Source: a virus. Taken from it: 64,000 nucleotides of DNA. Below are positions 33,150-61,684 of the stretch, one piece after another. The translations under genes were made by a program, and so were the position numbers. The stretch's first letter is position 1. Each line of letters starts with the position of its first letter. The stretch lies in IMG/VR virus record IMGVR_UViG_3300022602_000038, positions 64,001 through 128,000 of that record, one strand, 5' to 3'. The notes under the pieces were generated by a model. The model worked only from the letters and a program-made list of their open reading frames with translations. It did no database searches and was not told the DNA's origin.

Positions 33150-33224
33150 TGGTACCACCAAGGGGAATCGAACCCCTATTATCGAGATGAAAACCCGGTG
33201 TCCTAACCGTTAGACGATGGCGGC
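33150..33224 (-). tRNA. tRNA-Glu (UUC), CCA encoded
   Basis: GCCGCCATCGTCTAACGGTTAGGACACCGGGTTTTCATCTCGATAATAGGGGTTCGATTCCCCTTGGTGGTACCA. Confidence 0.92.
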
Positions 33225-33237
33225 ATAAATTTTATAA

Positions 33238-34458
33238 TTACACATTTACAAATTTAGTCAAATCTATTTGATAACCTTTTATATATTCATCAATTACAAA
33301 ATCATTCATTTTCCAAAAAGATGTGGTTGGTTTACCGTTTATAACAGTATTAACAGCCCAACTTTTAAATCTATTACAGTTATTTAGTCTGTTTAAAGCA
33401 GCTGGTTTAGCATATTCCCAAAAAGAACTTTTAATATTATTAGGACCTGCGTAGTTGATTGCTAATAACGATTGTATTGCTTCAATATTGTTTACATACC
33501 ATTCGTTTATTGCTAATGTAAGTCTACTATAATCTTCACTCCAATTTAATCTTAATATATAATCAGTCACGTTTTGCATTACATTTGTATAAAAATGTAA
33601 AGGTAAGGACATATGTGGCTCAAAAAAATGAAGTTTATTACCTAAATACAATATTCTATTATCCATTGCATTTTTTTTATAATATTGTTCCCAAGAAAAC
33701 CGTCTTAACTTAGAAGCATCAATATTTTTTATTTTTGAAAAATGTTCAATTGCTTCTTCTTCGCTTGTGATATTATTATTATAAAGATATCCCCAAGTTG
33801 TTCTATGTTGTAATGGTATACTAAACATCCACCCGTTTTTATGTACGTAAGCTCCTGTAAAGTTAAATTTATCTAAATTTTCTTTAATTTCAGGATAAAG
33901 AATTACAGAATTTACAACTTTAAAATCAGGAAACAGATATTCTTTAGAATTTAACTCTTCAGGGGTTGGAGTGCCCATACAATCTATTACAAAATCGTAG
34001 TTATATTTATCTTTAACACCAAAAACTGTCGCCGATCTTTCATCTTGCTTTATATCAATAACAGTGTCATGTATTTCTTTAAAATTATTATATAAAGCAG
34101 TTAATCTTTTTAAAGTAAATTTACTAAAAGTGTCGCTATTAAAATTTATACCAGGTGCACTACGTACAATAAAATTTTTGCCATTTGCTTCTTCCCAAAA
34201 ATATCTAACACTCCATTTAGTCGTACAATCTAATTCCGCACCTTCAGTTACTATATCAAAATTTAAAGCATGATAAAGCAGCTCGTAAATTAAAGATGTA
34301 CTTGTCTCTCCAACTTGTACTGGTGTAATGTTAGGATCGTGTATACAATGCACCTCTAAATTTTTTACTAATTTTTGTTTGGATTTTTTTAAAACTGCAA
34401 AAATTTGCAATAAAGCTATAGCACTTGCAGTGCCGTTACCGATTATACAAATTTTCAT
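33238..34458 (-). CDS. Flavin-dependent halogenase-like protein (short type)
   Basis: 'IIGNGTAS', 'VGETS', 'GWMFSIPL', 'GN...FFEP'. Confidence 0.75.
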   Translation of the reverse strand: MKICIIGNGTASAIALLQIFAVLKKSKQKLVKNLEVHCIHDPNITPVQVGETSTSLIYELLYHALNFDIVTEGAELDCTTKWSVRYFWEEANGKNFIVRSAPGINFNSDTFSKFTLKRLTALYNNFKEIHDTVIDIKQDERSATVFGVKDKYNYDFVIDCMGTPTPEELNSKEYLFPDFKVVNSVILYPEIKENLDKFNFTGAYVHKNGWMFSIPLQHRTTWGYLYNNNITSEEEAIEHFSKIKNIDASKLRRFSWEQYYKKNAMDNRILYLGNKLHFFEPHMSLPLHFYTNVMQNVTDYILRLNWSEDYSRLTLAINEWYVNNIEAIQSLLAINYAGPNNIKSSFWEYAKPAALNRLNNCNRFKSWAVNTVINGKPTTSFWKMNDFVIDEYIKGYQIDLTKFVNV

Positions 34459-34459
34459 T

Positions 34460-35644
34460 TTAACAAAAGTCTTTTGGTTCTAGTTTGTACCCATCAAAAT
34501 AATCTTTTAATATGCTTTCTGGGTGAGACCAATAAGAGCTTACTATACCGTCCTTATTTTCCAAACACCATAATTTAAAAATTATAGAGCTATTTAATCT
34601 TTTTCGAGATTTTTCTAATGCATAATCCCAAAAAGGGCTTTTGATATTGTTAAGACCTGCGTAATTAATAGCAACCATATCTTGTAATTCTTCTACACTA
34701 CGCATGTGAAATTGATTCACCTTTAAAGAAATAGACTTAGGGTCAGGGTTATTAAAAACCTCTCCAGTAAAAAACATTAACACGTTACCATAATAATGCA
34801 GTGGCATTGCCTGGTGCGGTTCAAAAAAATACAACCTATTACCCAAGTATAATATTCTATTATCCATTGCAAGCTTTTTATAGTATTGTTTCCAAGTGAG
34901 TTTTCTTAACTTAGAAGTATCAATATCTCTTATTTCTGAAAAATGTTTAATTGCTTCTTCTTCACTTGTAATGGTATTGTTATAAAGATACCCCCAAGTT
35001 TTTCTAGTAGTCAAAGGAATACCAAACATCCATCCGTTTTTATGTACATATGCGGAAGTGTATAGCTCGTCTGTTTTTATAGGCTCTGGGTATGCTATTA
35101 CTGAATTTACAGAAACCCAATCTGGTGCTTTATAATCTTTATTTGTTTCCACGTTAGGTGGTGTACCTCTACAATCTATTATATAATCATATTTATATGT
35201 ATTTTTTTCGCAAGATACATATACATTAGAACCATCTTGAGTAATATTTGTTACGTTATCTTTTATCTTTACAAAGTTATTGAATTTTTTTTCAACTTCA
35301 TCTATTACATAAAAACTGAATTTTTCACTATTTATATGAAATCCAGGCTCATTATGGCGTACTGTAAAATTATTACCATTTGCCTCTTCCCAGAAATACT
35401 TTGCACACCATTTAAGTGTACCATCAAACTTTGGTGCATCTCTTAATATGTCATAGTCTAAAACATTAAAGAGCGCTTTATTAACTAATCTTGAAGTGCT
35501 TTCTCCAACTTGAGTGGTAGAAATGTTAGGGTTATATATACAATGAATTTCAGCGTTTTTTAGTTTATTGAGTTTAATTTTTTCAAACAACCACAATAAA
35601 GAAAAAGCCCCTGCTGTACCTGCTCCTATTACACATATTCTCAT
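34460..35644 (-). CDS. Flavin-dependent halogenase-like protein (short type, paralog)
   Basis: 'GAGTAG', 'VGEST', 'GWMFGIPL', 'GNRLYFFEP'. Confidence 0.8.
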   Translation of the reverse strand: MRICVIGAGTAGAFSLLWLFEKIKLNKLKNAEIHCIYNPNISTTQVGESTSRLVNKALFNVLDYDILRDAPKFDGTLKWCAKYFWEEANGNNFTVRHNEPGFHINSEKFSFYVIDEVEKKFNNFVKIKDNVTNITQDGSNVYVSCEKNTYKYDYIIDCRGTPPNVETNKDYKAPDWVSVNSVIAYPEPIKTDELYTSAYVHKNGWMFGIPLTTRKTWGYLYNNTITSEEEAIKHFSEIRDIDTSKLRKLTWKQYYKKLAMDNRILYLGNRLYFFEPHQAMPLHYYGNVLMFFTGEVFNNPDPKSISLKVNQFHMRSVEELQDMVAINYAGLNNIKSPFWDYALEKSRKRLNSSIIFKLWCLENKDGIVSSYWSHPESILKDYFDGYKLEPKDFC

Positions 35645-35683
35645 AAAAACTATTTACTAAAGATTTATATTATTCAATAAAGA

Positions 35684-35710
35684 ACCCGGCTTGAAGAAAT
35701 CCAAGCCGGG
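35684..35710. terminator. GC-rich hairpin, probable terminator
   Basis: acccggcttg-aagaaatc-caagccgggt. Confidence 0.6.
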
Positions 35711-35732
35711 TGTAGTTTACTAGCTTATAATA

Positions 35733-35918
35733 TTAAAAGAGATGTTGATGAGGTGCTGAAATAGCTTCTTTCCAAACTATTACTGCTTTACCCCACATCT
35801 TTTTAATACTTTCAACGAACTTTAACTTTGTCTTACTGTTACCTATCTTATAGTCCTCGTATGCGAGTCTAACAAGACCACCAACAGCAAGATAACTTGT
35901 TATGATTATTGCTTGCAT
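35733..35918 (-). CDS. Small protein with N-terminal hydrophobic segment and structured 5' leader
   Basis: 61 aa; own TAAATA near 35992-35997 and a downstream hairpin. Confidence 0.55.
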   Translation of the reverse strand: MQAIIITSYLAVGGLVRLAYEDYKIGNSKTKLKFVESIKKMWGKAVIVWKEAISAPHQHLF

Positions 35919-36063
35919 ATGTGTTGTTTTGTTGAGAACCGCAGCCCGGAGGCTTTGGTTGTTGTGCTAGATGTTGTCACTAGCACAAATATTTACTCAA
36001 GATTTTCCTATAACAATAAAAATATCCATAGGAATAAACTATCACTTCTATTTGGATGATAAA

Positions 36064-36139
<76 letters not shown>

Positions 36140-36171
36140 TAAATTTGTAATACATTTACAAATATGCAAAA

Positions 36172-36256
36172 TGGTGGGTACACTTGGACTCGAACCAAGG
36201 AAGCTGTGAAGCAGCAGATTTACAGTCTGCCGTAATTGCCGCTATACGATATACCC
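36172..36256 (-). tRNA. tRNA-Tyr (GUA), long variable arm, CCA encoded
   Basis: GGGTATATCGTATAGCGGCAATTACGGCAGACTGTAAATCTGCTGCTTCACAGCTTCCTTGGTTCGAGTCCAAGTGTACCCACCA. Confidence 0.92.
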
Positions 36257-37632: not shown

Positions 37633-39219
37633 TTAATATCTTTCAGAAAGATAAGAAAGAAGTGTTTTGTGATTGATTAAAGATGATCTTACAAGTTGAA
37701 TATTTTTTATATATTTTTGTAATTGAGCTTTATATCTTATTTTTCTAATACCTATATTAAATGAGTCAAAAGCTTCTTTTGCTTTTTGACAGTCATAAAA
37801 ATTAATACCTGTACCTACTTGCAACCAACTGTCTATAGTAAAGTATATATTATTTATACCACTCTCTGTTACGTTAGATAATATTAATGCGTCGTTATTA
37901 TCAAGAAGTTTTTGTACCATTTCAGGTGCTTTATTATTTGTATTAAAATTTGCCCAAAAAGGTGTATCCGTTCTTTCAGTTAAATAATGAAAATAGATGA
38001 AATTTAAAATCTCTTGATTTAGTTTTAATACAGAATCGTTGTAGGATTTCATTTGATACGGGTCAGAGAATATTAAACCTCTTATATGTTGAGAAAAATA
38101 TCTTAAAGACGATATGGTAACCCATATAGATGTAGCTTCAAGTGGTTCTATAAAACCAGCTGCAAGCCCAATAGCGACACAGTTTTTTATCCAGGGGGTT
38201 TCGTATTGACCAGCTTCAAATGTGAACTGCCTGTTTATAACCGTATCTGTTCCTGTATATTCATCAATTTCTTTTTTAATACTCTCGTCATCAATCTGAT
38301 TACTATCAAATACATACCCGCACCCATATCTATCCTGTAAAGGTATTTTCCACATCCAACCATATTTCATAGCTATAGCTTCTGTGTATGGTGGTATTTC
38401 ACCATTTTTAATTGGTGAAAAAAACGTCATACTTTTATTTACAGGTAAATATTCTTTATAACTTTTCCAGTTATTATTAAAAAAATCCCCTATAATTTTA
38501 CGTTTAAAACCTGAACAATCAAAGACAAAATCACACCTTATTGTAGGGTCTGCATTTATTAATGTTAAAGAAGTTATATTACCTTCTTTATCGGTATTTA
38601 TTTTACTTACCGTGCTTTCAATTACTTTAATATTTCTTGCTTTACCTACAAATTTTAAAAAATCTGCAAGCATAACTGCATTAAAATGTAATGCATATGG
38701 TCCTAAGATATCAAAATGATATGTATTATCTTGAGTTTTGTTTTCAATATTACTGCTTACTACGAATTTTGTTGTGTAATCTTCACAAGTAATATATGTA
38801 AGGTCTATTTTATTTAAAGGCTCTCTGTTTGCTATTCTTTCTAAAGCTTCTAATGATAATATACTTTGACCTATAGTTGTATTTTGATTATAATTTACAC
38901 TATAATTATCTGTACTGAATCCGTGATAGTAATATTTATTATCGCCGTTCCAGTTGGTAAATTTAATACCGTTTTTTATAGTACCACCAGCGTGCTTTAC
39001 AATATCACTTGCTGAAATGTTTAACTCTTGTAAAAAATTTACTAAATGTGGTGTTGAACCTTCTCCGGCTCCTAGAATTCCTATTTCAGAGCTTTCTATA
39101 AGCGTTATACTTACATTTGGGTATTCTTTACGTAAAAATAAAGCTGTCAACCAGCCTGATGTACCACCTCCAACTACTACAAATTTGTAATCTTTACTGT
39201 CAAGGTTATTAAAGGCCAT
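37633..39219 (-). CDS. Tryptophan halogenase-family flavin-dependent halogenase (full-length)
   Basis: 'GGGTSGW', 'GAGEGS', 'IKNGIKF.NW' (catalytic Lys position), 'FDCSGF', 'GWMWKIPL' (WxWxIP), 'GF.EPLEATSI'. Confidence 0.92.
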   Translation of the reverse strand: MAFNNLDSKDYKFVVVGGGTSGWLTALFLRKEYPNVSITLIESSEIGILGAGEGSTPHLVNFLQELNISASDIVKHAGGTIKNGIKFTNWNGDNKYYYHGFSTDNYSVNYNQNTTIGQSILSLEALERIANREPLNKIDLTYITCEDYTTKFVVSSNIENKTQDNTYHFDILGPYALHFNAVMLADFLKFVGKARNIKVIESTVSKINTDKEGNITSLTLINADPTIRCDFVFDCSGFKRKIIGDFFNNNWKSYKEYLPVNKSMTFFSPIKNGEIPPYTEAIAMKYGWMWKIPLQDRYGCGYVFDSNQIDDESIKKEIDEYTGTDTVINRQFTFEAGQYETPWIKNCVAIGLAAGFIEPLEATSIWVTISSLRYFSQHIRGLIFSDPYQMKSYNDSVLKLNQEILNFIYFHYLTERTDTPFWANFNTNNKAPEMVQKLLDNNDALILSNVTESGINNIYFTIDSWLQVGTGINFYDCQKAKEAFDSFNIGIRKIRYKAQLQKYIKNIQLVRSSLINHKTLLSYLSERY

Positions 39220-39225
39220 ACTAAT

Positions 39226-39253
39226 ATTTTAGTATGAACTCAATAAAAATCAA
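39226..39253 (-). promoter_or_regulatory. Sigma70-like promoter TTGATT-N16-TAAAAT
   Basis: -10 box ends 6 nt before the ATG; similar arrangement before several other genes. Confidence 0.5.
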
Positions 39254-39259
39254 TTACAA

Positions 39260-39574
39260 TTACATTCCTACCTCTTCGTCTTTAGCTAAAGCAGCTTCAA
39301 CATCTTGTAGCATGTCTGCTGCTTCAGTAATATGAGTTACCATCCAAGCATGTAAAGGAGCTTCTGGACTTAAATTTTTAAGCATTTCAGCTAATCTAGG
39401 CGCAACTTCAGCAGCTTGCATTGCTTTAGTTAAAGCCATGTCGACATTATGAGTACTTTTCGTTCCGTCATGATGTACAGGTACATCTGTAATTTCAATA
39501 GCTTCTTCTCCAACTGGAGTTTCATTAACTAAAGAATATTTTTCGGATAAAATTTTATAAGCATTACGTGACAT
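39260..39574 (-). CDS. Hypothetical protein, possible internal head protein
   Basis: Start moved to ATG 39574 (MSRNAYKILSEKY..VNE) after TATAAATA at 39583-39590. Confidence 0.6.
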   Translation of the reverse strand: MSRNAYKILSEKYSLVNETPVGEEAIEITDVPVHHDGTKSTHNVDMALTKAMQAAEVAPRLAEMLKNLSPEAPLHAWMVTHITEAADMLQDVEAALAKDEEVGM

Positions 39575-39642
39575 ATATATTATATTTATATAATCCGTGC
39601 AGGAAAATTGCATTTAGCTAAATATATGTTATATTATATGTT

Positions 39643-40212
39643 ATGGGAATGTACGATACAATAACAGTTAAAGATAAACTACCTTGGACTGATGAAATGT
39701 GGGAAGAGGGATTACCTAACAATTGTAATGAATTTCAAATTAAAGGATTAATAGAGGGATTAGCTAATTACAAGATTGAAAATGGTAAACTGTTATTACA
39801 AAAGTTTAAAGAAGTAAAACTAGTAGATACAGAAACCTGTAATGGTTGGAGTAGTGCATTACAACGTTCCGGGGAGTATTGGGAAGATCAAAACTACCAC
39901 GGTAAGCTTAGTTTTTATGATTATGTACCAAACGAAAAGATCGGCAATAATGATTGCTGGGTAGAATTTACAGCAACTTTCACTAACGGTCAGATTGATA
40001 AAATTGAAGTGTCTAAGTTTGAAAAAAACGATAACACTGAACGCATCGAAAAGTGGAATGAAATAACTAACGAATTACGTCGAAATAACAAACGGTGGAT
40101 TAACAAATACTTCAATCATACAAAACCTATACGTTGGTTTCGTAGATGGGTATGGTATGAGCTTTGGTATAGGGCTGGTCAGTTTTGCAATAAAATGCAA
40201 ATCTTATGGTAA
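39643..40212 (+). CDS. Conserved hypothetical protein ('MGMYD' type)
   Basis: 189-aa ORF; TTGCAT-N16-TATATT upstream. Confidence 0.65.
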   Translation: MGMYDTITVKDKLPWTDEMWEEGLPNNCNEFQIKGLIEGLANYKIENGKLLLQKFKEVKLVDTETCNGWSSALQRSGEYWEDQNYHGKLSFYDYVPNEKIGNNDCWVEFTATFTNGQIDKIEVSKFEKNDNTERIEKWNEITNELRRNNKRWINKYFNHTKPIRWFRRWVWYELWYRAGQFCNKMQILW

Positions 40213-40872
40213 TTAACCTTTAATGCAATGAGCTACTAATAGCCCGTTCCACCACCCTAGCTTATCACCGAATGTCATTGGTCCGCTTGGACCTTGAATA
40301 ACTGTAGTATCAGCTACTATTTGTTTATGATACTGTATAGATATATTGTTATCTCTTAAAGCATCCATAGTACCTCTTTGAACTTCCTCCCAGTTATAGT
40401 CATCTACTATCAATATAAACTCTTTAGCTAAACTATTGTAATAATGAGCAATAGCTTTGTATTGTGAATCATAGCTATGCTCTCCATCATAAAAATATGT
40501 ATTGATATCTTTAATACCGAAGTCTAACGGGTTAATTGCAAAGCAATCAGCATCCAAAAAATTAGCTCTATTGTCATAGTCTAATAATCGTCTAGTGTTT
40601 TTATGAAATTCTAATCGAGGACCGGTAAATTGAGTAAAGTTATCTATTGCGATATGATAAGCAGGAGTGTTTTTATATAACGCAGATATTAATGTAGATC
40701 CTTTCCATGTACCTATTTCCAGGTAAGAAGTTTCTTGATTAATAATATTATTAAAAAAATGCCTTGTTTTATTACCAGACATTCCTTCTAAAGTTAATAT
40801 TTCTGAAGTTAATTTGGATTCTTGAGCTTCAGCTTTTTTAACCGCTTGTATAATTGTTTCAGTAAAATTCAT
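40213..40872 (-). CDS. Class I SAM methyltransferase (Methyltransf_24-like)
   Basis: 'YLEIGTWKGST', 'FYDGEH', 'IVDD'. Confidence 0.85.
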   Translation of the reverse strand: MNFTETIIQAVKKAEAQESKLTSEILTLEGMSGNKTRHFFNNIINQETSYLEIGTWKGSTLISALYKNTPAYHIAIDNFTQFTGPRLEFHKNTRRLLDYDNRANFLDADCFAINPLDFGIKDINTYFYDGEHSYDSQYKAIAHYYNSLAKEFILIVDDYNWEEVQRGTMDALRDNNISIQYHKQIVADTTVIQGPSGPMTFGDKLGWWNGLLVAHCIKG

Positions 40873-41432
40873 ATATTAAAGTAACACCAACATTGTTCTC
40901 CACAAAACAAACTATCATCATCTTTATTAAAAAAATGTCTTACAGCTTGTCGTACTCCTTCATCATTATAATAATCATGACCTGCTATATGCCCACCTTT
41001 CTTTAATTTTGGAAACCAAGCTTTAAGGTCTTCTAATACCGCTTCATATGCATGATTAGCATCTATAAAAATAAACTCCAACGAACTGTCTGCAAATTGT
41101 TTAGCAGCTTCTACAGAATTTATACGTACAGGTTCTACAACATGTTCTACAGGTTTAATATTCTCTTTAAACAAATGCCACACTAAATCTTCGGGTACAC
41201 TACTTGGATCTTTAAGATTTAATCCGTCAACAGTAAATCTGTTCCATACATCTACCACGGTAAGTTTTATATCTTTCTTAGAATTAATAATCTCTACTGC
41301 CATATAAGCAGTGGAAGCGCCTTGAAACGCCCCTACTTCCACGAAATGTGCATTATCATACTGCTTAACCATATGAGCATATAGTTGCGGAAATGTAAAC
41401 CAACCGGGTATCTTATAATGAAAATGTTCCAC
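40869..41432 (-). CDS. Class I SAM methyltransferase (Methyltransf_24-like)
   Basis: 'VEVGAFQG.S', 'FIDANHAYE', 'GG.IAGHDY'. Confidence 0.88.
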   Translation of the reverse strand: MEHFHYKIPGWFTFPQLYAHMVKQYDNAHFVEVGAFQGASTAYMAVEIINSKKDIKLTVVDVWNRFTVDGLNLKDPSSVPEDLVWHLFKENIKPVEHVVEPVRINSVEAAKQFADSSLEFIFIDANHAYEAVLEDLKAWFPKLKKGGHIAGHDYYNDEGVRQAVRHFFNKDDDSLFCGEQCWCYFNI

Positions 41433-42576: not shown

Positions 42577-43113
42577 TTATCTGTATTGTTTTTTTAATAA
42601 ACGCCATGTCGGGCTATCAATAACGACTTTACCATCATCGATGTTTTCAATCATACTGAGAGCTTGATCAATAGTGTTGTATATATATTTATGTTTAAGT
42701 TGCCCCATAAGCCATAAAGGCGTATTTTCTTTACCACCTTCAATAACGACAAATATAGGTTTTCGTGAAGCTACAGCGGTAGATAGTTCTTCAGCTGTAC
42801 CCCAACTAGCAGTGCTCGGTATAATATAAGCAATAATAAAATCCGATCTATCTACTAAGTTAAGATCAAATCTACGAATAGTCTTAGCCCATTCAGTTAC
42901 TTTATCGTATTCTCCGTTTTTCATATGTTGACGCATACGAATACGTACATCTGGTGATTCGTCGCTATCACTAATAAACGGTTTTTTGTACGGGTTAAAA
43001 ACTGTAATGTTGCGTGGTAATAAAGAGCTTTCTACTTTTTCTCTCCAGTTACTACCATCAGCATACTCCATTGCTCCAATAGTATAACATTTAGTACGAT
43101 ATAATGTATTCAT
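42577..43113 (-). CDS. Nucleoside 2-deoxyribosyltransferase / dNMP N-glycosidase-like protein
   Basis: 'Y..GAM', 'WRE', 'VFNP', 'DL..VD.SD', 'SWGTAEE' (nucleophile Glu), 'KP'. Confidence 0.8.
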   Translation of the reverse strand: MNTLYRTKCYTIGAMEYADGSNWREKVESSLLPRNITVFNPYKKPFISDSDESPDVRIRMRQHMKNGEYDKVTEWAKTIRRFDLNLVDRSDFIIAYIIPSTASWGTAEELSTAVASRKPIFVVIEGGKENTPLWLMGQLKHKYIYNTIDQALSMIENIDDGKVVIDSPTWRLLKKQYR

Positions 43114-45731: not shown

Positions 45732-46790
45732 TTATCGCACTAAACTACGTAATTCTGCCTCTGATACAGTAGCTGTAAAGCCGTCAGGGATACCTTTAAC
45801 AATACATCCAATAGCATCATGAGAATGTAAGCTTTCTAAATGACTGCATACAATTTTAAAGTCTACTACTCGCTTTTCTTTATTGAACTCCTCGTACAAT
45901 AAACGAGATGCATCTTCAACAAACTTAAGATATGCGCCGTTTAATTCAGCAAAAGCTTGTTCATCTTCTCTCTTAACCATTACTTGTGTTTCTGTTTTAA
46001 GAGCATTTAAGCACATTTGCTGTATTTCTTCAAACCAAATATGGTCGTTGTATTTTAACGATATACGGGCTGTAGAACGTTGTGAATGAGACACGACTGC
46101 TTTATTACGATGCTTACGAGCGTGTTCACCTAATTCAAAAGAACAAGGACAAGCAGAGGAATAAACAAAATCAAAATGTACAATTTTATCAAATACACCT
46201 TGTTGGTTTAAGTTACACTCAATAGCAATATTATAGTATTGATAACCTGCATTGCCGGAACGCAAACTCTGTTGAATGATAGGATAAGATATTTTAAGAA
46301 TAATCTTTGCGTCAAATGTTTGTAAGTTCTTTTTGTAAAGTTTTAAAACATCTTCAATATAGTTAGCATCAAATACGTTATCTTTATGCTCATAAAAAGA
46401 ACGAATAATACGCGACATATTAATACCTTTCTTTTCAGCAGCTAAAGAAACTGTACCTGTAACAGCAGTTTCTAATTCAATAACTGATCCATCTGCTTTT
46501 GTCCATTTAAGTGGTAATTTAAAATTATGAATACCTACTTGTTGAATAGCTACCTTTGCACCTTGTATTAGAGATGAAGGTCCGTTCTGTAAATCAGGTA
46601 AAGTAGCAATATAATTAGAGTCTACTTTAAGATTAGTATCGTAGTTACGATCAGGTTCCTTGTAACCTAAATTTGCTTTACTAAAATCTATAGTATTAGT
46701 ATTTTCTTTATCTTCGCCAAGCCAATCGTATGTTTGAGTATTTGTGTTTTTCACGTGTATAAAATTTTCTCCTGTTGTATATGTTTTCAT
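45732..46790 (-). CDS. folE2: GTP cyclohydrolase I type 2 (FolE2)
   Basis: 'KGINMSR', 'SACPCS', 'HSQRS', 'VKREDE', 'FVED..R', 'ESLHSHDA'. Confidence 0.93.
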   Translation of the reverse strand: MKTYTTGENFIHVKNTNTQTYDWLGEDKENTNTIDFSKANLGYKEPDRNYDTNLKVDSNYIATLPDLQNGPSSLIQGAKVAIQQVGIHNFKLPLKWTKADGSVIELETAVTGTVSLAAEKKGINMSRIIRSFYEHKDNVFDANYIEDVLKLYKKNLQTFDAKIILKISYPIIQQSLRSGNAGYQYYNIAIECNLNQQGVFDKIVHFDFVYSSACPCSFELGEHARKHRNKAVVSHSQRSTARISLKYNDHIWFEEIQQMCLNALKTETQVMVKREDEQAFAELNGAYLKFVEDASRLLYEEFNKEKRVVDFKIVCSHLESLHSHDAIGCIVKGIPDGFTATVSEAELRSLVR

Positions 46791-47392
46791 GAAACAGTTG
46801 AGTGTCGACTAAAAAGTAAATTAAAAGAAATACTAATTCTTTCATTATCAGTAGTATTAGGTTCAGTATTGTGTAATAACCAAGAAGGAAATAAAATCAA
46901 CATACCTTCCTCCGGGGTTATATACTCTAACTCAAGTATTGAATTATAACACCAGGAAGCATTTAACATAAAATTAGGGTTTCTAAAAATAATTTTTCCA
47001 TCTTTACTATTTGTTTTAAAATAATAAACCCCACATAAGTCGACTGGACCATGAGTGTGGGCATAAGCATAGTCATTTTTATTTGAAATGGTCATCCAGG
47101 ACTCTGAAATGTTATAATTTGTTGTTTTATTATAATTGAGATGAGTAAGGTATGTAATTACGTGCTTAAGTAACTCTCCTTTAAATATATTAATCTTGTA
47201 ATCTGTAATTAAATTACTATTAAAAGTAGGATCATTTATTAAGTGAGTACCTCTCCAGCCTTTTTGTCTGTCAAATGTATTTTTTTGTTTAAGGTCTTGA
47301 TATACTTGTTCAAAACTTTCCTGTACTAAGCTAAATACAGGCTCTTCAAACTTAGCAATATATAAAGGGGTAGAGAAAAGATTTTTAATCAT
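46787..47392 (-). CDS. 2OG-Fe(II) oxygenase (phage TIGR02466-like)
   Basis: 'LF.TP', 'HTH....CGVYY', 'FPSWL.H', 'RISISFN'. Confidence 0.85.
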   Translation of the reverse strand: MIKNLFSTPLYIAKFEEPVFSLVQESFEQVYQDLKQKNTFDRQKGWRGTHLINDPTFNSNLITDYKINIFKGELLKHVITYLTHLNYNKTTNYNISESWMTISNKNDYAYAHTHGPVDLCGVYYFKTNSKDGKIIFRNPNFMLNASWCYNSILELEYITPEEGMLILFPSWLLHNTEPNTTDNERISISFNLLFSRHSTVS

Positions 47393-53240: not shown

Positions 53241-53245
53241 ATTAT

Positions 53246-53277
53246 AAAAAAAGCTAAGGTTGCCCTTAGCTTTTTTT
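53246..53277. terminator. Bidirectional terminator
   Basis: aaaaaaagctaagg-ttgc-ccttagcttttttt. Confidence 0.88.
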
Positions 53278-53280
53278 GTT

Positions 53281-54806: not shown

Positions 54807-55733
54807 TTATTGACGAGGAAATTTATGATAAAGAGCTTTAGGATTAACTAAATTACTATCCAATAAATCTTTGTGAGATGCTCTAGTAGGTACAATATCC
54901 CAACCGCCACGACGAGCGTAAAAACATGTTACTAAAAGCTCTTGTGGTTCTAGTAAGTCCCAAAGACGCTTATAAGCGGCTTCGCAAATTTCTTCATGAA
55001 AATGGCACTCATTACGTAATGAAACAACCCATTCAAGTAAAGAATTTTCGTTGACTGCTTTATTCCCTTTATAATAGATATAAATGTCTCCGGAATCTGG
55101 CTGCTTGGTGATCTTACAATTAGAACGTAAAAGAGAGCTCATATAATGACCCTCTACAGTACCTACTGATTTATTATTAATTTTTAATAAATCTGGTGTT
55201 TCGTTAAACACTGTAAATTTAAGCTTTTCTGCTTTAGGTATATTTTCAAGTACGGTCCAACCATAAGGTTCTTCAGTATTATATACATCAAAGAGTCTAT
55301 TATCAAAATGTTCTTTACTCAGTAATTGAGAGAACAGTTCTACCTTTACATTCGTTTCAAGTAATAAAGAAAGGTCCTTCTCTGCTGTCTTTTTAATGTT
55401 CTTAAGTACTTGAGCACTGGTTTTACCCATATGCTGCATATTAAATGAATTCCAGTAAAGTTTCATTGATTTAGATTCTACAATGAAATCATTTGTACAA
55501 GGATATACTACTTTTGCAACACAAGTAACAGGCAAGCCTTTATCTGTTAATGCACTACATTCATAGCCGTTCCAAATATCATAACCTACAAACGGTAGGT
55601 CTTTATTCTTAAGATCGAGGTACGTACGATTGCGTTGACGTTCTTCTCGAACCAATATTTCAGGTGTATAAGTAGTTGGAGAATCTACTCTTTGTCCAAG
55701 TACTTTGTCAATATTATTAGTGTTATAGCTCAT
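54807..55733 (-). CDS. queF: NADPH-dependent preQ0 reductase QueF (bimodular)
   Basis: 'D.WNGYECS.L', 'ESKSMKLY' QueF motif, 'LRSNC.IT.QPD', 'FHEE..E', 'Y.RRGG.DI'. Confidence 0.93.
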   Translation of the reverse strand: MSYNTNNIDKVLGQRVDSPTTYTPEILVREERQRNRTYLDLKNKDLPFVGYDIWNGYECSALTDKGLPVTCVAKVVYPCTNDFIVESKSMKLYWNSFNMQHMGKTSAQVLKNIKKTAEKDLSLLLETNVKVELFSQLLSKEHFDNRLFDVYNTEEPYGWTVLENIPKAEKLKFTVFNETPDLLKINNKSVGTVEGHYMSSLLRSNCKITKQPDSGDIYIYYKGNKAVNENSLLEWVVSLRNECHFHEEICEAAYKRLWDLLEPQELLVTCFYARRGGWDIVPTRASHKDLLDSNLVNPKALYHKFPRQ

Positions 55734-56298
55734 TTGTAAAATCTTTTTGTATTTCAGTAATTACTTTGTTAACTCTTTCTTCAACAGTACCCATCACATA
55801 AACAAGTTTATCTGTAGGCATTGAGTGATGTTTGATATAAAAATCAAATTGTTTTACCACTCCATCAAAAAACTCTCTACCTGTACTTCTTTCCCCATCG
55901 TCTTTTAAATCAAGTTCAGGTACAATATAGAAAATCTTATCATAGGTCTTTATTAATTGTTCATAGATGCTTAGGGCAGCTTGATATATCTCCTTGTTAA
56001 TTTGACCCTTTTCATAAAAATATGAAGTGTAGGATATACCATCTAAAGCACCTCTATCTAATACCCAGTTACCTGGAGTTAAAGCAAATTCTAAGTGTCT
56101 AGCCATCACCAAGTATTGCGTTAAAGATGTACCTCCTTCATTAATAGGTACATTTAAATCTTTTAAACCTCTAGTTAAATTAGTTCTAAATGAAAAATGA
56201 TTGTCGTCTAAAAACAATTCATTCTTTAGAGCTTTTACTAAAGTAGTTTTACCTTGTGAATGAGCGCCACATATAGCAGCTTTATAATTAGTTCTCAT
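55723..56298 (-). CDS. P-loop nucleotide kinase (AAA_28/dNMP-kinase-like)
   Basis: 'GAHSQGKTT', 'LDRG..D', 'YD.IFY', 'DDGER'. Confidence 0.8.
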   Translation of the reverse strand: MRTNYKAAICGAHSQGKTTLVKALKNELFLDDNHFSFRTNLTRGLKDLNVPINEGGTSLTQYLVMARHLEFALTPGNWVLDRGALDGISYTSYFYEKGQINKEIYQAALSIYEQLIKTYDKIFYIVPELDLKDDGERSTGREFFDGVVKQFDFYIKHHSMPTDKLVYVMGTVEERVNKVITEIQKDFTNEL

Positions 56299-56879
56299 AG
56301 TTTATTATTTAATATTTTATTCTTCATAAACGCAACCCAATTATTAATTGCAAGTTTATGTAAATCCTCAATAAATAAATCCAAACTTTTAAAATCCGTA
56401 TACAAATCTTCTGTTTTAAAACTTGTCTCTGAAACGACCCTACCAGCATCTACTTCTGGTATAACTTCATGAATAACATGTCCATGTACATTATACTTTT
56501 TTGTGGGGTATGTTTGCCACACTTTAGCTTGTGGATCTTTACCTTTTAATTCAGGAAATTTAGTAATAAGACCAGGGTGACCGTTATATATTTTAAATTT
56601 ACTGCATATCTCTGGTGGTACAATACGAAGAAACCCGTGTAATGTAATTATATCAGTAAATTTAATAGCTTCTCTATATTCTTGTACAGTTGGCTTTTTA
56701 GGTATAAAAATAAAACGATCAAAACATCTTTCAAGAAATTTTGGGTTAATTTTATCTAAATCTTCAAAGCTTTTATTAGTAATAATTGCATCTGGAAATC
56801 GCCCTATCTTTGTAGATAGTTCATATATCTCAGAACCACTCTGAGAAAAAAATGCTTTCCAGATTATATTGCGTTTCAT
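56295..56879 (-). CDS. PurN-like formyltransferase (DpdN candidate)
   Basis: 'FSQSGS', 'LHGFLRI', 'YNGHPGL', 'H.V..EVDAG' (catalytic Asn-His-Asp). Confidence 0.85.
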   Translation of the reverse strand: MKRNIIWKAFFSQSGSEIYELSTKIGRFPDAIITNKSFEDLDKINPKFLERCFDRFIFIPKKPTVQEYREAIKFTDIITLHGFLRIVPPEICSKFKIYNGHPGLITKFPELKGKDPQAKVWQTYPTKKYNVHGHVIHEVIPEVDAGRVVSETSFKTEDLYTDFKSLDLFIEDLHKLAINNWVAFMKNKILNNKL

Positions 56880-57106
56880 ATATTTAAGCGAAACCCTATT
56901 GTATTATCACTAAAAAAAATTACAAGGGTAAAATCAACAATACCGTGTTTTATTAGGTAAGGTTTAACATCAGATAGTTCTTTTACTGGGAGTTCACAAT
57001 TACGAATACAATCCCAAAAATAATAATTCCGAACAGAAACATTATCTGCCAAGAGGTGGGGGTAATTTGCATGAACAGAATTAGTTATAGCTTCTAAAGT
57101 TGTCAT
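56876..57106 (-). CDS. Hypothetical protein within the modification cassette
   Basis: ATGA overlaps on both sides. Confidence 0.65.
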   Translation of the reverse strand: MTTLEAITNSVHANYPHLLADNVSVRNYYFWDCIRNCELPVKELSDVKPYLIKHGIVDFTLVIFFSDNTIGFRLNI

Positions 57107-57909
57107 CCATTAACGTAATTTCTAAACTCAATTAAATTACTTGCAATGATTCTTTCTTGTATTGTGTCTGGTACTACATCTAACAGATCTACAAGCTTAG
57201 TAGACTCTTTTTTCCAGTTACCTATTGCGTCAGTGTATCTTATTCTTTTAATACCATGAACAATAGGAGATGATGTATCTAATGTTTCGATCCAATTATA
57301 TTCAGGACCTTGATAGAAACTAAACTCTCTCGGGTGAGCACAACCTAGTAAGTGATGAGGTTTGTCTTTATTAATAATACCATCGTTCATTAATTGGGTG
57401 AGTGTTATTACTCTACCCATCATATAAGATACCCACTTGTTAGGGTGCGGAAATAGTTTAAGATAATAAGAGTAATCGAACGATATAGCTAATTTATCTA
57501 CATCAATTTCTTGATCTAAAGTTACATAACATTTAACTAACTCTGCATAAGTTTTACCTTGTACAACACCGATAGTTTTAGAGTTATTAAGAAAATCCCA
57601 CTCTCTCCATAGACATTTCTTAGCAGATTCAATTGTACCGTTACAATCTTCTAATACATCTGGTATAATATATTCAGTGGGATTAAGCTTTTCTATCCAG
57701 TAAGCATAACGTTTAGAATCAAAAGCTGTACCTAATTCAAATATAGAGTTATCTAATAGAACATGTCTACCTTGTTCTAAACTATCTACAAAGAAGGAAT
57801 AATAATCAGCATGATGTTCAAATAAATGCACTAATGCATAATCATAATCGTTGTATGTACGAGACATCTCGAGCATACTTAAAGGAGATTCGTGAGAAAT
57901 TTTAATCAT
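57103..57909 (-). CDS. TGT/DpdA-like TIM-barrel (DpdA3-type candidate)
   Basis: 'LLDNS.FELG', 'IPDV', 'GVVQG', 'HHLLG', 'LDTSSP'; adjacent to queF, formyltransferase and polB. Confidence 0.75.
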   Translation of the reverse strand: MIKISHESPLSMLEMSRTYNDYDYALVHLFEHHADYYSFFVDSLEQGRHVLLDNSIFELGTAFDSKRYAYWIEKLNPTEYIIPDVLEDCNGTIESAKKCLWREWDFLNNSKTIGVVQGKTYAELVKCYVTLDQEIDVDKLAISFDYSYYLKLFPHPNKWVSYMMGRVITLTQLMNDGIINKDKPHHLLGCAHPREFSFYQGPEYNWIETLDTSSPIVHGIKRIRYTDAIGNWKKESTKLVDLLDVVPDTIQERIIASNLIEFRNYVNG

Positions 57910-60470
57910 GAGAATAAATTAAATAAGTCTGTTTGTACTTCGCTATTAGTTTGTGGTAATTGCCAGTTAAGAGCGTCATATACAGCTTTAACTGGTGGTG
58001 TTATAATAGTATCGAACATTTCTTGATAATCAACTTGAAAATCGTTTAATTCCGGTGGAAAAGTACCTGTATAACATAGAGTATCAATATTATACTTGTT
58101 ACCTGCAATGTAAATTTTCTTTACTTTACCGCCAGATGTAATTCTTTCGTACTTGTTTTCAAGATTTCTATGTTTTAATAGCTGATTATACCAAATAGCA
58201 CCTTTTACGTGATTTGGAGTACCTTTTGATATTTTAAATCCTTCAGCCTTGACTTCATGCTTTTCAATATCACTTAAACCGCCTCTAATAGCGATATCAT
58301 CAGTAGAAAGCTTCTTAAACGTATCGTAAACCTCTCTATATAGAGTATTAGCTTTATTATGATCTTGACCTAACAAACTATTTTCAATGACTCGCTTAAT
58401 AAGTTCTTTAGCTTTTTTAGGTGTAGTAGAACGTGCAATTTCAACTCCAACGTATTTAAACTTATTAACATCAGCACCTTCATCGTTTAATACGTGTATA
58501 ATATAACGTTTCTTTTGTAGGTAAACACCTACATCACAAATAGATTCTCTCTTAAAAAAGTAACGAGGGTCAATAGATTTAAACTCAGATGCAGACCATT
58601 TCTTAATCTCACTATTTAAATATGTACCTATTTCTTTATCTATCAGGTTTAATCCCTCTGGGGTTACTTTACCCTCAGCAAATAGCTTTATCTTAAGCTT
58701 ATCAACAATTGGTTGAATAGTAACATGAGTACTGTCAGTGTCACCATATATATTAAGAGAAACGTCAACTCCGTATTGCTCTTTAGCATATGTATCAAGG
58801 ATAACACCTGCTTGTTTAACCACCGACTGACCAGTAAGAGTAATGCTACCGGCGTGATCACTATCACAAATAGGGCTAAACTTATTAGCAAAAACACCGT
58901 AGATAGAATTAAGAAGAATCTTAATGACGTGCTGTATGGTGTCAGCTCGTTCCATATTAGACTTACACGTTTTGTACTCATCTGTATTTGGGGTTAATTT
59001 ACTTAGCTTCTTTTTATAGTCTATATACTCATTTTTGTTTTTTACACGTTCACTGTAAAGACCATCAATTAAAGATGGTACAACACCTTTTTTCTTTTGA
59101 GTATACAGTACACCTGCTTTAGATATAGCTAGCTTTTCAACTTCTAAAAACCTATCAAACTTACTAGCAGTTATTTCATGAGTATTACCGCTAGCTGTAA
59201 GCAACGTAACTGTTTCATCTGTACGCTTTAATATCTTACCCATTTTAGTTTCAGGTGATATATTAAGAGTAATAATGGTATTAGGATATAGAGAGTTAGC
59301 ATCATAACTAACAATAGAAGTTTTTAAACCTCTTTCTGGTTCTCTTACATAACCGCCGTCAATTTCATCTCTTAGTGGTCCGCCCACGAAAGTTGGTATA
59401 ATCATGCCGTGTTTATAAGCTTCTAACGCAACACAACCAGTAACAATAGATACCTTACCTAAAGCAGCTTCAAAACTTGTTAGTCCTTTTGTCGCTAACA
59501 TGCGAATGATTTTAAAGAGCTGTAATTTACGCTCCATTCTGACAAGCAGTTCAACATCTTGAATATTATAATTAACAAAGTTATTCCAATCGCTTTGAGA
59601 TAAAGTAGCTAGGTTTGTAGCATTAATAGCTAGTTTACCTTCTCCGAGCTCGTGTTCTGCAACAAAGTTAAGAGAGTATGATTCAAGTAATTGACGTGAG
59701 AATCCCTTATACACTTCAAGATAATCCATAGCTGCAATGCCATGTATGTACCACTTATCTAATTTCTGTCCTTTAACAAATATCCCCTCTCTACACCATA
59801 CGCTATTTACAGGTGATAATCTCTTAGCTGCACCATCTCCGAAGATACTTGTAAGACGATTAATAATGTAAGGAAAGTCGAAAAAGTCTGTATTCCAACC
59901 AGTAAGAATATCTGGGTAATTATCGTCTTTTTCAAAGAATTCGATAAACTTACTGAGCATATCTACTTCGTTTTTACATAATGTGTAAATTACATTCTTT
60001 CTGTCAGTACTGTACGGACTACATCCCCAAGTATAAAAATTTTCAGATAGATTATCGTAAACTGTTATAAGATTAATAGGGTGCTTAGCGTCTTTAGCTT
60101 CCGGAAATTCATCTGGAGAATAAACTTCAATATCTAAGAAAAATATCTTAAGTGGAAACTTAGTAAACTCAGGTTTATCGTATTCGTCTTTAAACGTATC
60201 TATAAGAAACTGCTGTTCTACTTGAATGTTGTGGTATAGTCGCTTAATAGCGCCATCTTGAGACGCTCTATTACGTTCGTAGCTATTTTTATAAACCTTC
60301 TTTTTAAGTTTAGTATTAAAAATAGATAAAGCGTCAGCCGTATCAAGATTAGTTTCTATGTAGAAATAAGGTAAATGTGGTTGTTTTTTTACAACACGAT
60401 TACCATTTTCATCCCATGTAAAAAGATGACAGATACTATCTTTTGAACTATAATAAACGTTTCGGTACAC
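57906..60470 (-). CDS. Family B DNA polymerase (gp43-like)
   Basis: Exo 'DIE', 'GWN...FD', 'YNIQD'; pol 'YDANSLYP', 'K..LNSIYG', 'YGDTDS', 'KKRY'; C-terminal 'QTDLFNLF' clamp motif. Confidence 0.97.
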   Translation of the reverse strand: MYRNVYYSSKDSICHLFTWDENGNRVVKKQPHLPYFYIETNLDTADALSIFNTKLKKKVYKNSYERNRASQDGAIKRLYHNIQVEQQFLIDTFKDEYDKPEFTKFPLKIFFLDIEVYSPDEFPEAKDAKHPINLITVYDNLSENFYTWGCSPYSTDRKNVIYTLCKNEVDMLSKFIEFFEKDDNYPDILTGWNTDFFDFPYIINRLTSIFGDGAAKRLSPVNSVWCREGIFVKGQKLDKWYIHGIAAMDYLEVYKGFSRQLLESYSLNFVAEHELGEGKLAINATNLATLSQSDWNNFVNYNIQDVELLVRMERKLQLFKIIRMLATKGLTSFEAALGKVSIVTGCVALEAYKHGMIIPTFVGGPLRDEIDGGYVREPERGLKTSIVSYDANSLYPNTIITLNISPETKMGKILKRTDETVTLLTASGNTHEITASKFDRFLEVEKLAISKAGVLYTQKKKGVVPSLIDGLYSERVKNKNEYIDYKKKLSKLTPNTDEYKTCKSNMERADTIQHVIKILLNSIYGVFANKFSPICDSDHAGSITLTGQSVVKQAGVILDTYAKEQYGVDVSLNIYGDTDSTHVTIQPIVDKLKIKLFAEGKVTPEGLNLIDKEIGTYLNSEIKKWSASEFKSIDPRYFFKRESICDVGVYLQKKRYIIHVLNDEGADVNKFKYVGVEIARSTTPKKAKELIKRVIENSLLGQDHNKANTLYREVYDTFKKLSTDDIAIRGGLSDIEKHEVKAEGFKISKGTPNHVKGAIWYNQLLKHRNLENKYERITSGGKVKKIYIAGNKYNIDTLCYTGTFPPELNDFQVDYQEMFDTIITPPVKAVYDALNWQLPQTNSEVQTDLFNLFS

Positions 60471-60478
60471 AGCTTAAT

Positions 60479-60506
60479 ATTGTGGTACCATTTACCAAAA
60501 TATCAA
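60479..60506 (-). promoter_or_regulatory. Sigma70-like promoter TTGATA-N16-CACAAT for polB
   Basis: -10 box 8 nt before the GTG start. Confidence 0.4.
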
Positions 60507-61684
60507 GAAAAATATAGTCTCGTGAACTCATCAATATGATCTTCTAACCAGTATTTAGATGCAACTTTACGAGCACTATCAGATTCTGTAAGGTAAATAC
60601 GGCGATCCGATAAGACCTTTTTAAGTTTATCAATCATTTCATCTGCTGTATTGAAACGTAAAGGTGCTACCGGAGATGTATTATACGGTGTTAAATCTTG
60701 ACATATACATGGTAAGCCTAGTGCACCAGCTTCTAAATACTTAATTGGTGCTTTAGCTAAATTAAATTTGTTATTTTGTAGTGGAGCGATAGCCGCGTTT
60801 AAGTTTAAACTACTAAATGCAGCAGGGTAGTTCCAAATAGTAGCCCATGGTGTATACTCAATGTCACCGCTTCTTACTAAGTGATGCAGTTCTTGAGGTA
60901 CACCACCCATTAAAACCCACTTAAAGTACTTAGATGTTTTAATAATAACATCTGCAATATCACCGAAGTCGTCTTTTATACCTGGTACATTGGCAACATT
61001 AAAGTGTGTGGGGCTGCCAATATAACCTACCCTTGGACGTTTCTTATTTGCTTCGTAATTTTCTGTAATTTTTACTTTACTATAAAATCTGTCCATCCAG
61101 AACTTAGGCATGTAATTAGGTAATGTTATACCTTTTACCCCAGTTTTTTCTTGATAATATTTTGACATGTAGTCTGTAGGGGTTGTAATACCGTCACATA
61201 ACTGCATAATCTTTTCAGCTGTTTGAGTTATAGTCGGATCTACAAACGCTTCTCTAGCTTTATTGTACAGTGGTATATCATCTGGATATATTACATCGTC
61301 AATATCATAGTAAATCTTAAACTTGTTTGTTTTGTTAGAAACTGCCCTTAAATACTGTACAAATTGTAATTGGGTAGGAGTAACCTGTCTTTGTATTCTT
61401 ACAGAACTAATTCCATCATAAAAATTATCCTGTAAAATCATAAAATTATTATTGTTAATAATTCCTAATTGATTGCCGTTTATTACTGTTTCTGGCCAAT
61501 GAATTCTCCAGAAACCACAACCTTGATGATCTGCAGCATAACTTACAGCTCTTTTAGTACCGCCTGGTAATCCTGTAACTGGAGCAGAAGGTTGTACTGT
61601 TTCATTTACTAATGGACTACCAAAAGCAGGAGCTCCTAAAGGTAGTTGTGGAGCACCAAATACTCCGTTATTAAGATTTATCAT
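60503..61684 (-). CDS. GT-B fold glycosyltransferase
   Basis: 'GCGFWRI.WP', 'IQRQ', 'YDIDD', 'GYIGS.TH', 'APL..N.FN..K..IKYLEAG'. Confidence 0.8.
   Translation of the reverse strand: MINLNNGVFGAPQLPLGAPAFGSPLVNETVQPSAPVTGLPGGTKRAVSYAADHQGCGFWRIHWPETVINGNQLGIINNNNFMILQDNFYDGISSVRIQRQVTPTQLQFVQYLRAVSNKTNKFKIYYDIDDVIYPDDIPLYNKAREAFVDPTITQTAEKIMQLCDGITTPTDYMSKYYQEKTGVKGITLPNYMPKFWMDRFYSKVKITENYEANKKRPRVGYIGSPTHFNVANVPGIKDDFGDIADVIIKTSKYFKWVLMGGVPQELHHLVRSGDIEYTPWATIWNYPAAFSSLNLNAAIAPLQNNKFNLAKAPIKYLEAGALGLPCICQDLTPYNTSPVAPLRFNTADEMIDKLKKVLSDRRIYLTESDSARKVASKYWLEDHIDEFTRLYFS

Follow-up and report, generated by a model that had tools for sequence, protein, structure and literature searches.

Predicted replacement of guanine by a formylated 7-deazaguanine in an uncultured freshwater T4-like phage, and a kinase constantly linked to DpdA3

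We analysed a 64,000-nucleotide stretch of viral DNA (hereafter the window), which corresponds to bases 64001-128000 of one 140,720-bp linear IMG/VR virus contig (IMGVR_UViG_3300022602_000038, contig C1) with an estimated completeness of about 65%. The source is an uncultured freshwater T4-like myovirus. On the minus strand, the window carries a run of overlapping genes for a DNA polymerase (PolB), a DpdA3-type barrel protein, a small protein of 76 residues, the PurN-like formyltransferase DpdN, a P-loop kinase and QueF. This run contains a DNA-modification core orthologous to that of Flavobacterium phage immuto, and we predict with high confidence that it leads to fdPreQ1, the 7-(formylaminomethyl)-7-deazaguanine form of the nucleoside, in place of G. 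The replacement of G is probably complete. In the DNA of immuto, liquid chromatography-mass spectrometry revealed no deoxyguanosine and fdPreQ1 in its place (Cui et al. 2023, PMC10516641). The first-pass annotation of the window had pointed to a Flavobacterium phage with DpdA3, the PurN paralogue DpdN and replaced G, and this agrees with the published account (PMC10516641). It also turned out that the kinase is the one constant neighbour of DpdA3, ahead of DpdN and QueF.

The barrel protein (268 aa, 57103-57909, minus strand) was assigned to DpdA3 by its sequence similarity and its fold. It is 50.7% identical to the immuto DpdA3 over 100% of its length (8e-78), and 42% identical to a protein of Campylobacter phages of the CP220 type that is annotated as hypothetical (CP220 gp056). 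These immuto and CP220-type proteins are the DpdA3 of Cui, Hutinet et al. 2023 (PMC10516641). The whole DpdA3 family comprises 1,634 clusters (50% identity, E at most 0.001). The window protein has no Pfam match and matches phrog_19058 (9e-52). A sequence-level link to tRNA-guanine transglycosylase (TGT) was found neither in Pfam, nor with phmmer, nor with a 49-sequence profile against the PDB; one weak match to the NCBIfam model tgt_general was obtained (E 0.003). The AlphaFold model of the barrel has a predicted local distance difference test score (pLDDT) of 96 and retrieves TGT in Foldseek with an E-value of 1e-8. Alignment of the model with VIA-align gave Z 18.0 for the archaeal ArcTGT (root-mean-square deviation 3.0, 231 residues aligned), 16.6 for DpdA (PDB 7ui4) and 16.6 for the bacterial TGT, and unrelated barrels reached Z of at most 15.0. 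On this model the protein has the TIM-barrel fold of the TGT superfamily. The comparison with DpdA and TGT that the first-pass annotation had called for gives DpdA3 as the nearest sequence and the TGT superfamily as the structure. Residues D53, D84 and D211 are invariant in 49 DpdA3 sequences and lie in the model at the C-terminal ends of strands 50-53, 79-81 and 207-212, a placement read without residue-level superposition on TGT. We also considered judging DNA binding from net charge and rejected this, as the isoelectric points of DpdA3 (5.4) and of DpdA1 from phage 9g (5.6) do not discriminate.

The formyltransferase DpdN (194 aa, 56295-56879, minus strand) contains a Formyl_trans_N domain (PF00551, 27.5 bits) and is 43% identical to the immuto DpdN (5e-48). 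DpdN has been described as a PurN-like gene beside DpdA3 and as a predicted formyltransferase in immuto (PMC10516641). Among 50,697 phage records, the only strong matches were those of immuto, and the weak ones were two Acinetobacter phage purN genes (28% identity, 8e-5). Residues N99, H101 and D144 align with the catalytic Asn-His-Asp of PurN, and the protein scores 33 bits against the 150-bit cut-off of the PurN equivalog. By these features, the aminomethyl group of preQ1 is the predicted formylation target of DpdN. The window protein groups with the immuto DpdN, and DpdA and the FolE-to-QueF genes are co-encoded, which places it in the published group 1. In two relatives from different samples (P0149 and P0274), DpdA3 and DpdN are fused into proteins of 447 aa each, which are 48% and 38% identical to the window DpdA3 and have an AAA_28 gene beside them. 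These fusions support a functional link of insertion with formylation.

TGT has a zinc-binding C-terminal part that contacts the tRNA, and the barrel of the window has no region outside the TIM barrel. A role of the genes in queuosine/tRNA metabolism or purine synthesis, with the barrel as a tRNA TGT and the formyltransferase as PurN, is highly improbable. Such functions would be in keeping with the best single structural match, which is the archaeal tRNA transglycosylase, and with the tRNA-Tyr(GTA) encoded in the window. However, the barrel is closest to DpdA3 proteins from phages whose DNA is fully modified, the searches of Pfam and the PDB gave no TGT, and the formyltransferase, which two lineages have as a fusion with DpdA3, is far below the PurN cut-off.

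QueF (308 aa, 54807-55733, minus strand) is a bimodular nitrile reductase converting preQ0 to preQ1, with QueF_N and QueF domains. It is 41% identical to the immuto QueF (3e-74) and scores 221 bits against TIGR03138, below the 293-bit equivalog cut-off. The motif ESKSxKLY, reported as intact in the first-pass annotation, is present as E-S-K-S-M-K-L-Y at residues 86-93, and the alignment also shows the thioimide cysteine (Cys206) and His246-Glu247.

It is unlikely, though conceivable, that the DNA is modified and the final base is something other than plain fdPreQ1, such as partly formylated preQ1 or a further derivative. The formyl transfer by DpdN is a prediction even in immuto (PMC10516641), and the phage studied here encodes extra enzymes that might act on the base: a glycosyltransferase between sbcC and polB, a 2-oxoglutarate (2OG)-Fe(II) oxygenase beside folE2, two methyltransferases and the 76-residue protein. 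However, the four core genes match immuto one for one, DpdN retains the catalytic residues of PurN, and across lineages no extra enzyme co-varies with DpdA3.

The contig carries FolE2, QueD, the 5' end of QueE and QueF. The folE2 gene (45732-46790, minus strand; GTP cyclohydrolase IB, PF02649, 223 bits) lies 8.0 kb from the end of queF, as had been noted, and is preceded by a 110-aa open reading frame (ORF) and the 2OG-Fe(II) oxygenase gene (region 45732-47392). None of queC, queD and queE is within the window, also as noted. A search of the rest of the contig recovered two of them: queD (C1:140062-140544) and a queE cut by the contig end after its first 51 codons (C1:140566-140720), whose product is 96% identical to the QueE of a relative over 48 aligned residues. 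The third, queC, was not found on the 140,720-bp contig. The missing queC and the partial queE are explained by truncation of the contig: in all five long relatives queC lies about 5 kb beyond queD, and it is expected just beyond the contig end. One of the long relatives has, in this order, QueD, QueE, a second AAA_28 paralogue, an ORF of 211 aa, a primase, several further ORFs, QueC and a glutamine amidotransferase. In relative G001 (L069:648-3281, minus strand), a gene of its own for a class II glutamine amidotransferase (218 aa) comes after queC, with a gene for a DUF366 protein further on. The gp06 protein of phage 9g, annotated as an aminotransferase, is presumably a Gat-QueC fusion. The first enzyme of the pathway has been swapped non-orthologously. 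FolE2 was not found in the five long relatives, and four of them (G001, G002, G003 and G005) have a type I FolE (PF01227) in the same slot; FolE2 is also present in the more distant L071.

The kinase gene (191 aa, 55723-56298, minus strand) was recognised by its AAA_28 domain and by its fold. To assess its linkage, we used a profile scan of 80 loci found with the 49-sequence DpdA3 alignment (49-93% identity); these are the loci most similar to the window DpdA3, and the counts are biased toward one subfamily. Enough sequence was available for 53 loci, which form 33 clusters at about 80% identity. In all 53 of these loci, and so in all 33 clusters, the kinase was located no more than 2.5 kb downstream of DpdA3. 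By cluster, the other neighbours were QueF (31 of 33), DpdN (29), a MazG-like protein (7), PolB (7), a phosphoribosyltransferase (PRTase; 6) and the 76-residue protein (4). The pair of kinase and DpdA3 is kept where both DpdN and QueF are absent (L072 and L098), where DpdN is absent (L130) and where the order is reversed (L146). The window kinase is 33% identical to that of immuto (6e-27), which is encoded one gene from DpdA3, after DpdN, and 34% identical to CP220 gp057, which is encoded directly after DpdA3. Among the 50,697 phage records, matches above 33% identity are confined to 18 records, all of which bear DpdA3.

The model of the kinase (pLDDT 90.7) retrieved thymidylate kinase, deoxyadenosine kinase, deoxycytidine kinase and the ribosylnicotinamide kinase domain of NadR in Foldseek, with E-values from 6e-7 to 1e-5. 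Residues G11, G16, K17, T19, D81-R82, R137 and R175 are invariant and include the P-loop, an Asp-Arg motif and a lid arginine. Judging from the model, the protein has a nucleoside/nucleotide-kinase fold of the thymidylate kinase, deoxynucleoside kinase or NadR ribosylnicotinamide kinase type. The kinase and the 76-residue protein had been proposed as candidate uncharacterised components of the system, to be checked by co-occurrence with DpdA3; the kinase is a good candidate, and the proposal fails for the small protein as a general component. The word "kinase" is absent from the paper that defines the DpdA3 family (Cui et al. 2023, PMC10516641), and among the later papers searched none dealt with a DpdA3-linked kinase. 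We regard the comparative result on the kinase as the useful part of this analysis.

Several other P-loop proteins were noticed near DpdA genes or as relatives of the kinase. In CP220, a P-loop protein is encoded on either side of DpdA3. Distant DpdA3-like genes are present in phages of Bacillus, Weizmannia and Chryseobacterium, each with a gene for a small Walker-A protein directly upstream. Relative G001 encodes a second AAA_28 paralogue (L069:6969-7679, minus strand, 236 aa) between queE and the primase gene, which is 23% identical to the DpdA3-linked kinase (E 3e-11) and is expected beyond the end of the window's own contig. Two kinases could correspond to two successive phosphorylation steps. 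A distant homologue of the kinase (about 27% identity) is carried by 62 Streptomyces phages. These homologues were considered as DpdA partners and rejected, as their neighbour is an FkbM methyltransferase and no DpdA is present. In Streptomyces phage Yaboi (L057:8214-9612) and about 60 relatives, the FkbM-type methyltransferase gene adjoins that of the kinase homologue and a MazG-like gene is nearby; this locus may be another nucleotide-level modification module.

The following scheme can be proposed. FolE2, QueD, QueE and QueC would convert GTP to preQ0, and QueF would reduce preQ0 to preQ1. DpdA3 would exchange guanine for the 7-deazaguanine base, and DpdN would formylate the aminomethyl group with a formyl-folate as the donor. 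The product would be fdPreQ1 instead of G, protecting the DNA against restriction. If the route runs through nucleotides, DpdA3 would act on a free deoxynucleoside or deoxynucleotide and exchange its base; further phosphorylation by the linked kinase would lead toward the triphosphate, which PolB of the phage would incorporate. We consider such a pre-replicative route plausible, about as likely as not. Somewhat more tentatively, we suggest that DpdA3 is not a DNA transglycosylase and may instead be a free-nucleotide base exchanger that, together with the kinase, feeds a 7-deazaguanine deoxynucleoside triphosphate (dNTP) to the polymerase. Orthology, folds, conserved catalytic residues and gene linkage are the basis of the scheme, and from them we infer every enzymatic step, the substrates and the extent of replacement.

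The nucleotide route is supported by the strict linkage of the kinase and by its fold. It is also supported by the MazG-like and PRTase neighbours of DpdA3 in other lineages, by an HD protein encoded next to it in CP220, and by the Walker-A proteins upstream of the distant DpdA3-like genes. Published observations point in the same direction. Replacement of 100% of G has been reported only for phages with DpdA3, and other DpdA groups reach at most 30%; for 9g DpdA1 and the bacterial DpdA, the replaced fraction is 0.1-30% or less (PMC10516641). The nucleoside of 7-amido-7-deazaguanine (ADG) has been reported in CP220-infected cells, and DpdA3 alone failed in E. coli (PMC10516641). How DpdA3 phages reach 100%, against 30% at most elsewhere, was left open in that paper.

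A serious possibility, to which we give less credence, is that the same fdPreQ1 module follows the published route. In this case, PolB would make ordinary G-containing DNA, DpdA3 would swap G for preQ1 or formyl-preQ1 in the polymer, and the kinase would be an accessory protein (supplying deoxynucleoside monophosphates (dNMPs) like T4 gp1, working in salvage, or serving as a DpdB-like ATP-using helper). The barrel is as close to DpdA, which inserts preQ0 into DNA, as to bacterial tRNA TGT, and the DpdA3-DpdN fusions would fit a pair of enzymes working on one substrate, which could be DNA. However, the published route gives no reason why a protein with a nucleotide-kinase fold follows DpdA3 in every cluster and in CP220. 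The kinase is not a generic T4-like dNMP kinase, because the other phages of the collection lack it, except for the distant Streptomyces homologues, and its fold is not the ParB-like ATPase fold of DpdB. The inactivity of DpdA3 alone in E. coli and the restriction of 100% replacement to DpdA3 phages also speak against this route.

Against the nucleotide route stand several points, of which some favour insertion into the polymer directly. In the paper that defines the family, insertion after replication is proposed for every DpdA group (PMC10516641). Characterised enzymes of the TGT superfamily mostly act on polynucleotides, and the structural scores (Z 18.0 against 16.6) cannot separate tRNA-acting, DNA-acting or other substrates of the modelled barrel. 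No MazG, HD protein or immuto-like pyrophosphohydrolase that could clear deoxyguanosine triphosphate (dGTP) was found on the roughly 65%-complete contig. The long forms of DpdA3 in the 150 best relatives included no fusion with the kinase. The fdPreQ1 identity itself is, for this phage, a prediction from its genes. Thus, from the first-pass prediction of a formyl-preQ1 cassette, the DpdA3/DpdN/QueF module stands by orthology, and the kinase-based pre-replicative route, which contradicts the published proposal, stays conjectural. The adjacency of the polymerase, which had been read as a sign of that route, carries no information about it: PolB adjoins DpdA3 in only 7 of the 33 clusters, and 9g DpdA1, which replaces only part of the G and is regarded as a post-replication enzyme by the family's authors, also adjoins clamp and polymerase genes, with no kinase nearby. 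If the route does run through nucleotides, it would be the first pre-replicative hypermodification of a purine by base swapping, and it would offer an enzymatic synthesis of 7-substituted 7-deaza-dGTPs.

The nucleoside 2-deoxyribosyltransferase family takes in base-exchange enzymes and dNMP N-hydrolases. A protein of this family (PF05014, 178 aa) is encoded at 42577-43113 on the minus strand. We considered its gene as a member of the pathway and rejected it, as it is absent from immuto, CP220, BSP7 and two relatives.

The six minus-strand ORFs overlap at their start and stop codons at the positions given in the first-pass annotation. The run opens with polB (854 aa, 57906-60470, minus strand), whose product is a T4 gp43-like family B polymerase with the Pfam domains DNA_pol_B and DNA_pol_B_exo1, matches phrog_262 over its full length (631 bits) and is 76-85% identical across 52 relatives. 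The consecutive overlaps from polB through the barrel gene, orf76 (the gene of the 76-residue protein), the formyltransferase gene and the kinase gene to queF are 4, 4, 4, 4 and 11 nt. After uvsX, a palindromic hairpin between A and T runs (53244-53279, a 16-pair stem with a T run) is likely a two-way terminator that closes the transcription unit. In the scanned region, terminator-like sites were not commoner than in shuffled sequence; two weak ones of 6-7 pairs are located within the overlapping genes, and a promoter scan was at chance level. The order SbcC, glycosyltransferase, PolB, DpdA3, orf76, DpdN, kinase, QueF, orf114 and UvsX is kept in 52 related IMG/VR contigs, whose DpdA3 is 83-93% identical to that of the window. 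This recurrence indicates that the run is not a chance pattern of ORFs. The median ratio of nonsynonymous to synonymous substitution rates (dN/dS) is 0.05-0.17 for the enzymes. The glycosyltransferase gene (393 aa, 60503-61684, minus strand), which has a 14-nt overlap, matches phrog_7162 and weakly Glyco_trans_1_4, and it is kept in all relatives and in L070 and L071.

The small gene orf76 (76 aa, 56876-57106, minus strand) has a dN/dS of 0.175 over 227 pairs, which indicates a real gene under purifying selection. Its homologues fall into 13 clusters, are all 76 aa long and all come from the PolB-linked T4-like clade; the more distant copies are 43-54% identical and have conserved residues. 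Beyond this clade no homologues were found, and the Atlas gave no usable match. The gene is not present in the nearest outgroups L070 and L071, nor in immuto, whose ORF of 50 aa at the corresponding place shows no similarity to it. Thus, orf76 is a lineage-specific add-on and not a core part, and with 4 of 33 clusters from one lineage it cannot be the general component that had been suggested. In contig L098 (IMGVR_UViG_3300022602_003929), orf76 stays next to DpdA3, and DpdN and QueF are gone; any link of orf76 is therefore to DpdA3 or the kinase, not to formylation. The locus in question (L098:6001-7603) has the SbcC, glycosyltransferase and PolB backbone, DpdA3 (59% identity), orf76 (79%) and the kinase. 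This phage probably makes another 7-deazaguanine base. The mismatched identities of its DpdA3 and orf76 suggest recombination within the block.

The plus-strand half of the window encodes tail proteins (sheath, baseplate, tape measure and collagen-like fibres), and the replication module on the minus-strand half is T4-like and encodes SbcC, PolB, UvsX, gp32 and a DnaB-like helicase. Lake and freshwater metagenome DNA runs contain near-identical sequence, and at least half of the sampled words were found in two of them; among the sequencing runs listed with such sequence, none was an RNA run. The operon had no match to phage genomes by megablast. Three tRNA genes, for Glu(TTC), Met(CAT) and Tyr(GTA), are located at 33150-36256 on the minus strand. 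The tRNA-Tyr with the GUA anticodon is one of the queuosine-bearing classes in bacteria, and its presence is noteworthy in a phage that would divert preQ1. Other genes at 37633-41432 (minus strand) and 27807-29435 (plus strand) encode auxiliary enzymes: a flavoprotein resembling tryptophan halogenases (528 aa, 333 bits), a NodU/Nol-like carbamoyltransferase and two Methyltransf_24 proteins. When the contig was searched with PolB, a short second match came from an ORF of 487 aa that lies outside the window (C1:135089-136552, minus strand; 33% identity over 96 residues, E 9e-5).

Pre-replicative hypermodification of the T4 type relies on dCMP hydroxymethylase, the dNMP kinase gp1 and the dCTPase gp56, and the Z-genome set consists of PurZ, MazZ and DatZ. 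The system described here resembles both in that one base is fully replaced, by prediction in our case, and in that a dedicated nucleotide kinase is encoded beside the modifying enzyme; in some DpdA3 lineages nucleoside triphosphate pyrophosphohydrolase genes are neighbours as well. It differs in that the window enzyme would be a barrel that exchanges the base rather than a synthase that works on it in place, and in that no enzyme clearing a canonical dNTP was found on the incomplete contig. Phage 9g DpdA1 and the bacterial DpdA (7ui4) share the TGT-superfamily barrel with the window protein, and the 9g gene is also located in a replication module, next to clamp and polymerase genes. However, they have no detectable sequence similarity to DpdA3, and the 9g gene has no kinase neighbour.

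CP220 and other Firehammerviruses have DpdA3 (42% identity) followed directly by a kinase of the same family (34%). In contrast to the window, there is no DpdN or QueF at the CP220 locus, and the end product is the deoxynucleoside of ADG (dADG), which replaces all G, not fdPreQ1. Directly upstream of DpdA3, CP220 encodes gp055 (L056:6862-7893), which joins an HD phosphohydrolase to an AAA_33 kinase domain.

The closest known system is that of immuto, whose locus is annotated as DpdA3, a 50-aa ORF, a formyltransferase, a "thymidylate kinase" and QueF. The order DpdA3, small ORF, DpdN, kinase and QueF is the same in the window, with four orthologues at 33-51% identity, and the preQ0 pathway is encoded elsewhere in the genome in both phages. 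In immuto a family A polymerase gene stands two genes further on, whereas in the window overlapping reading frames join the block to a family B polymerase gene. Immuto has a type I FolE and the window FolE2, and no MazG-like or PRTase neighbour was found in the window. The small ORF of the window is unrelated to that of immuto, and the window backbone is T4-like (gp32, UvsX, DnaB-like helicase and SbcC). Thus, the gene set was already known, and the window adds a diverged freshwater T4-like lineage to the DpdA3/DpdN phages of the fdPreQ1 type.

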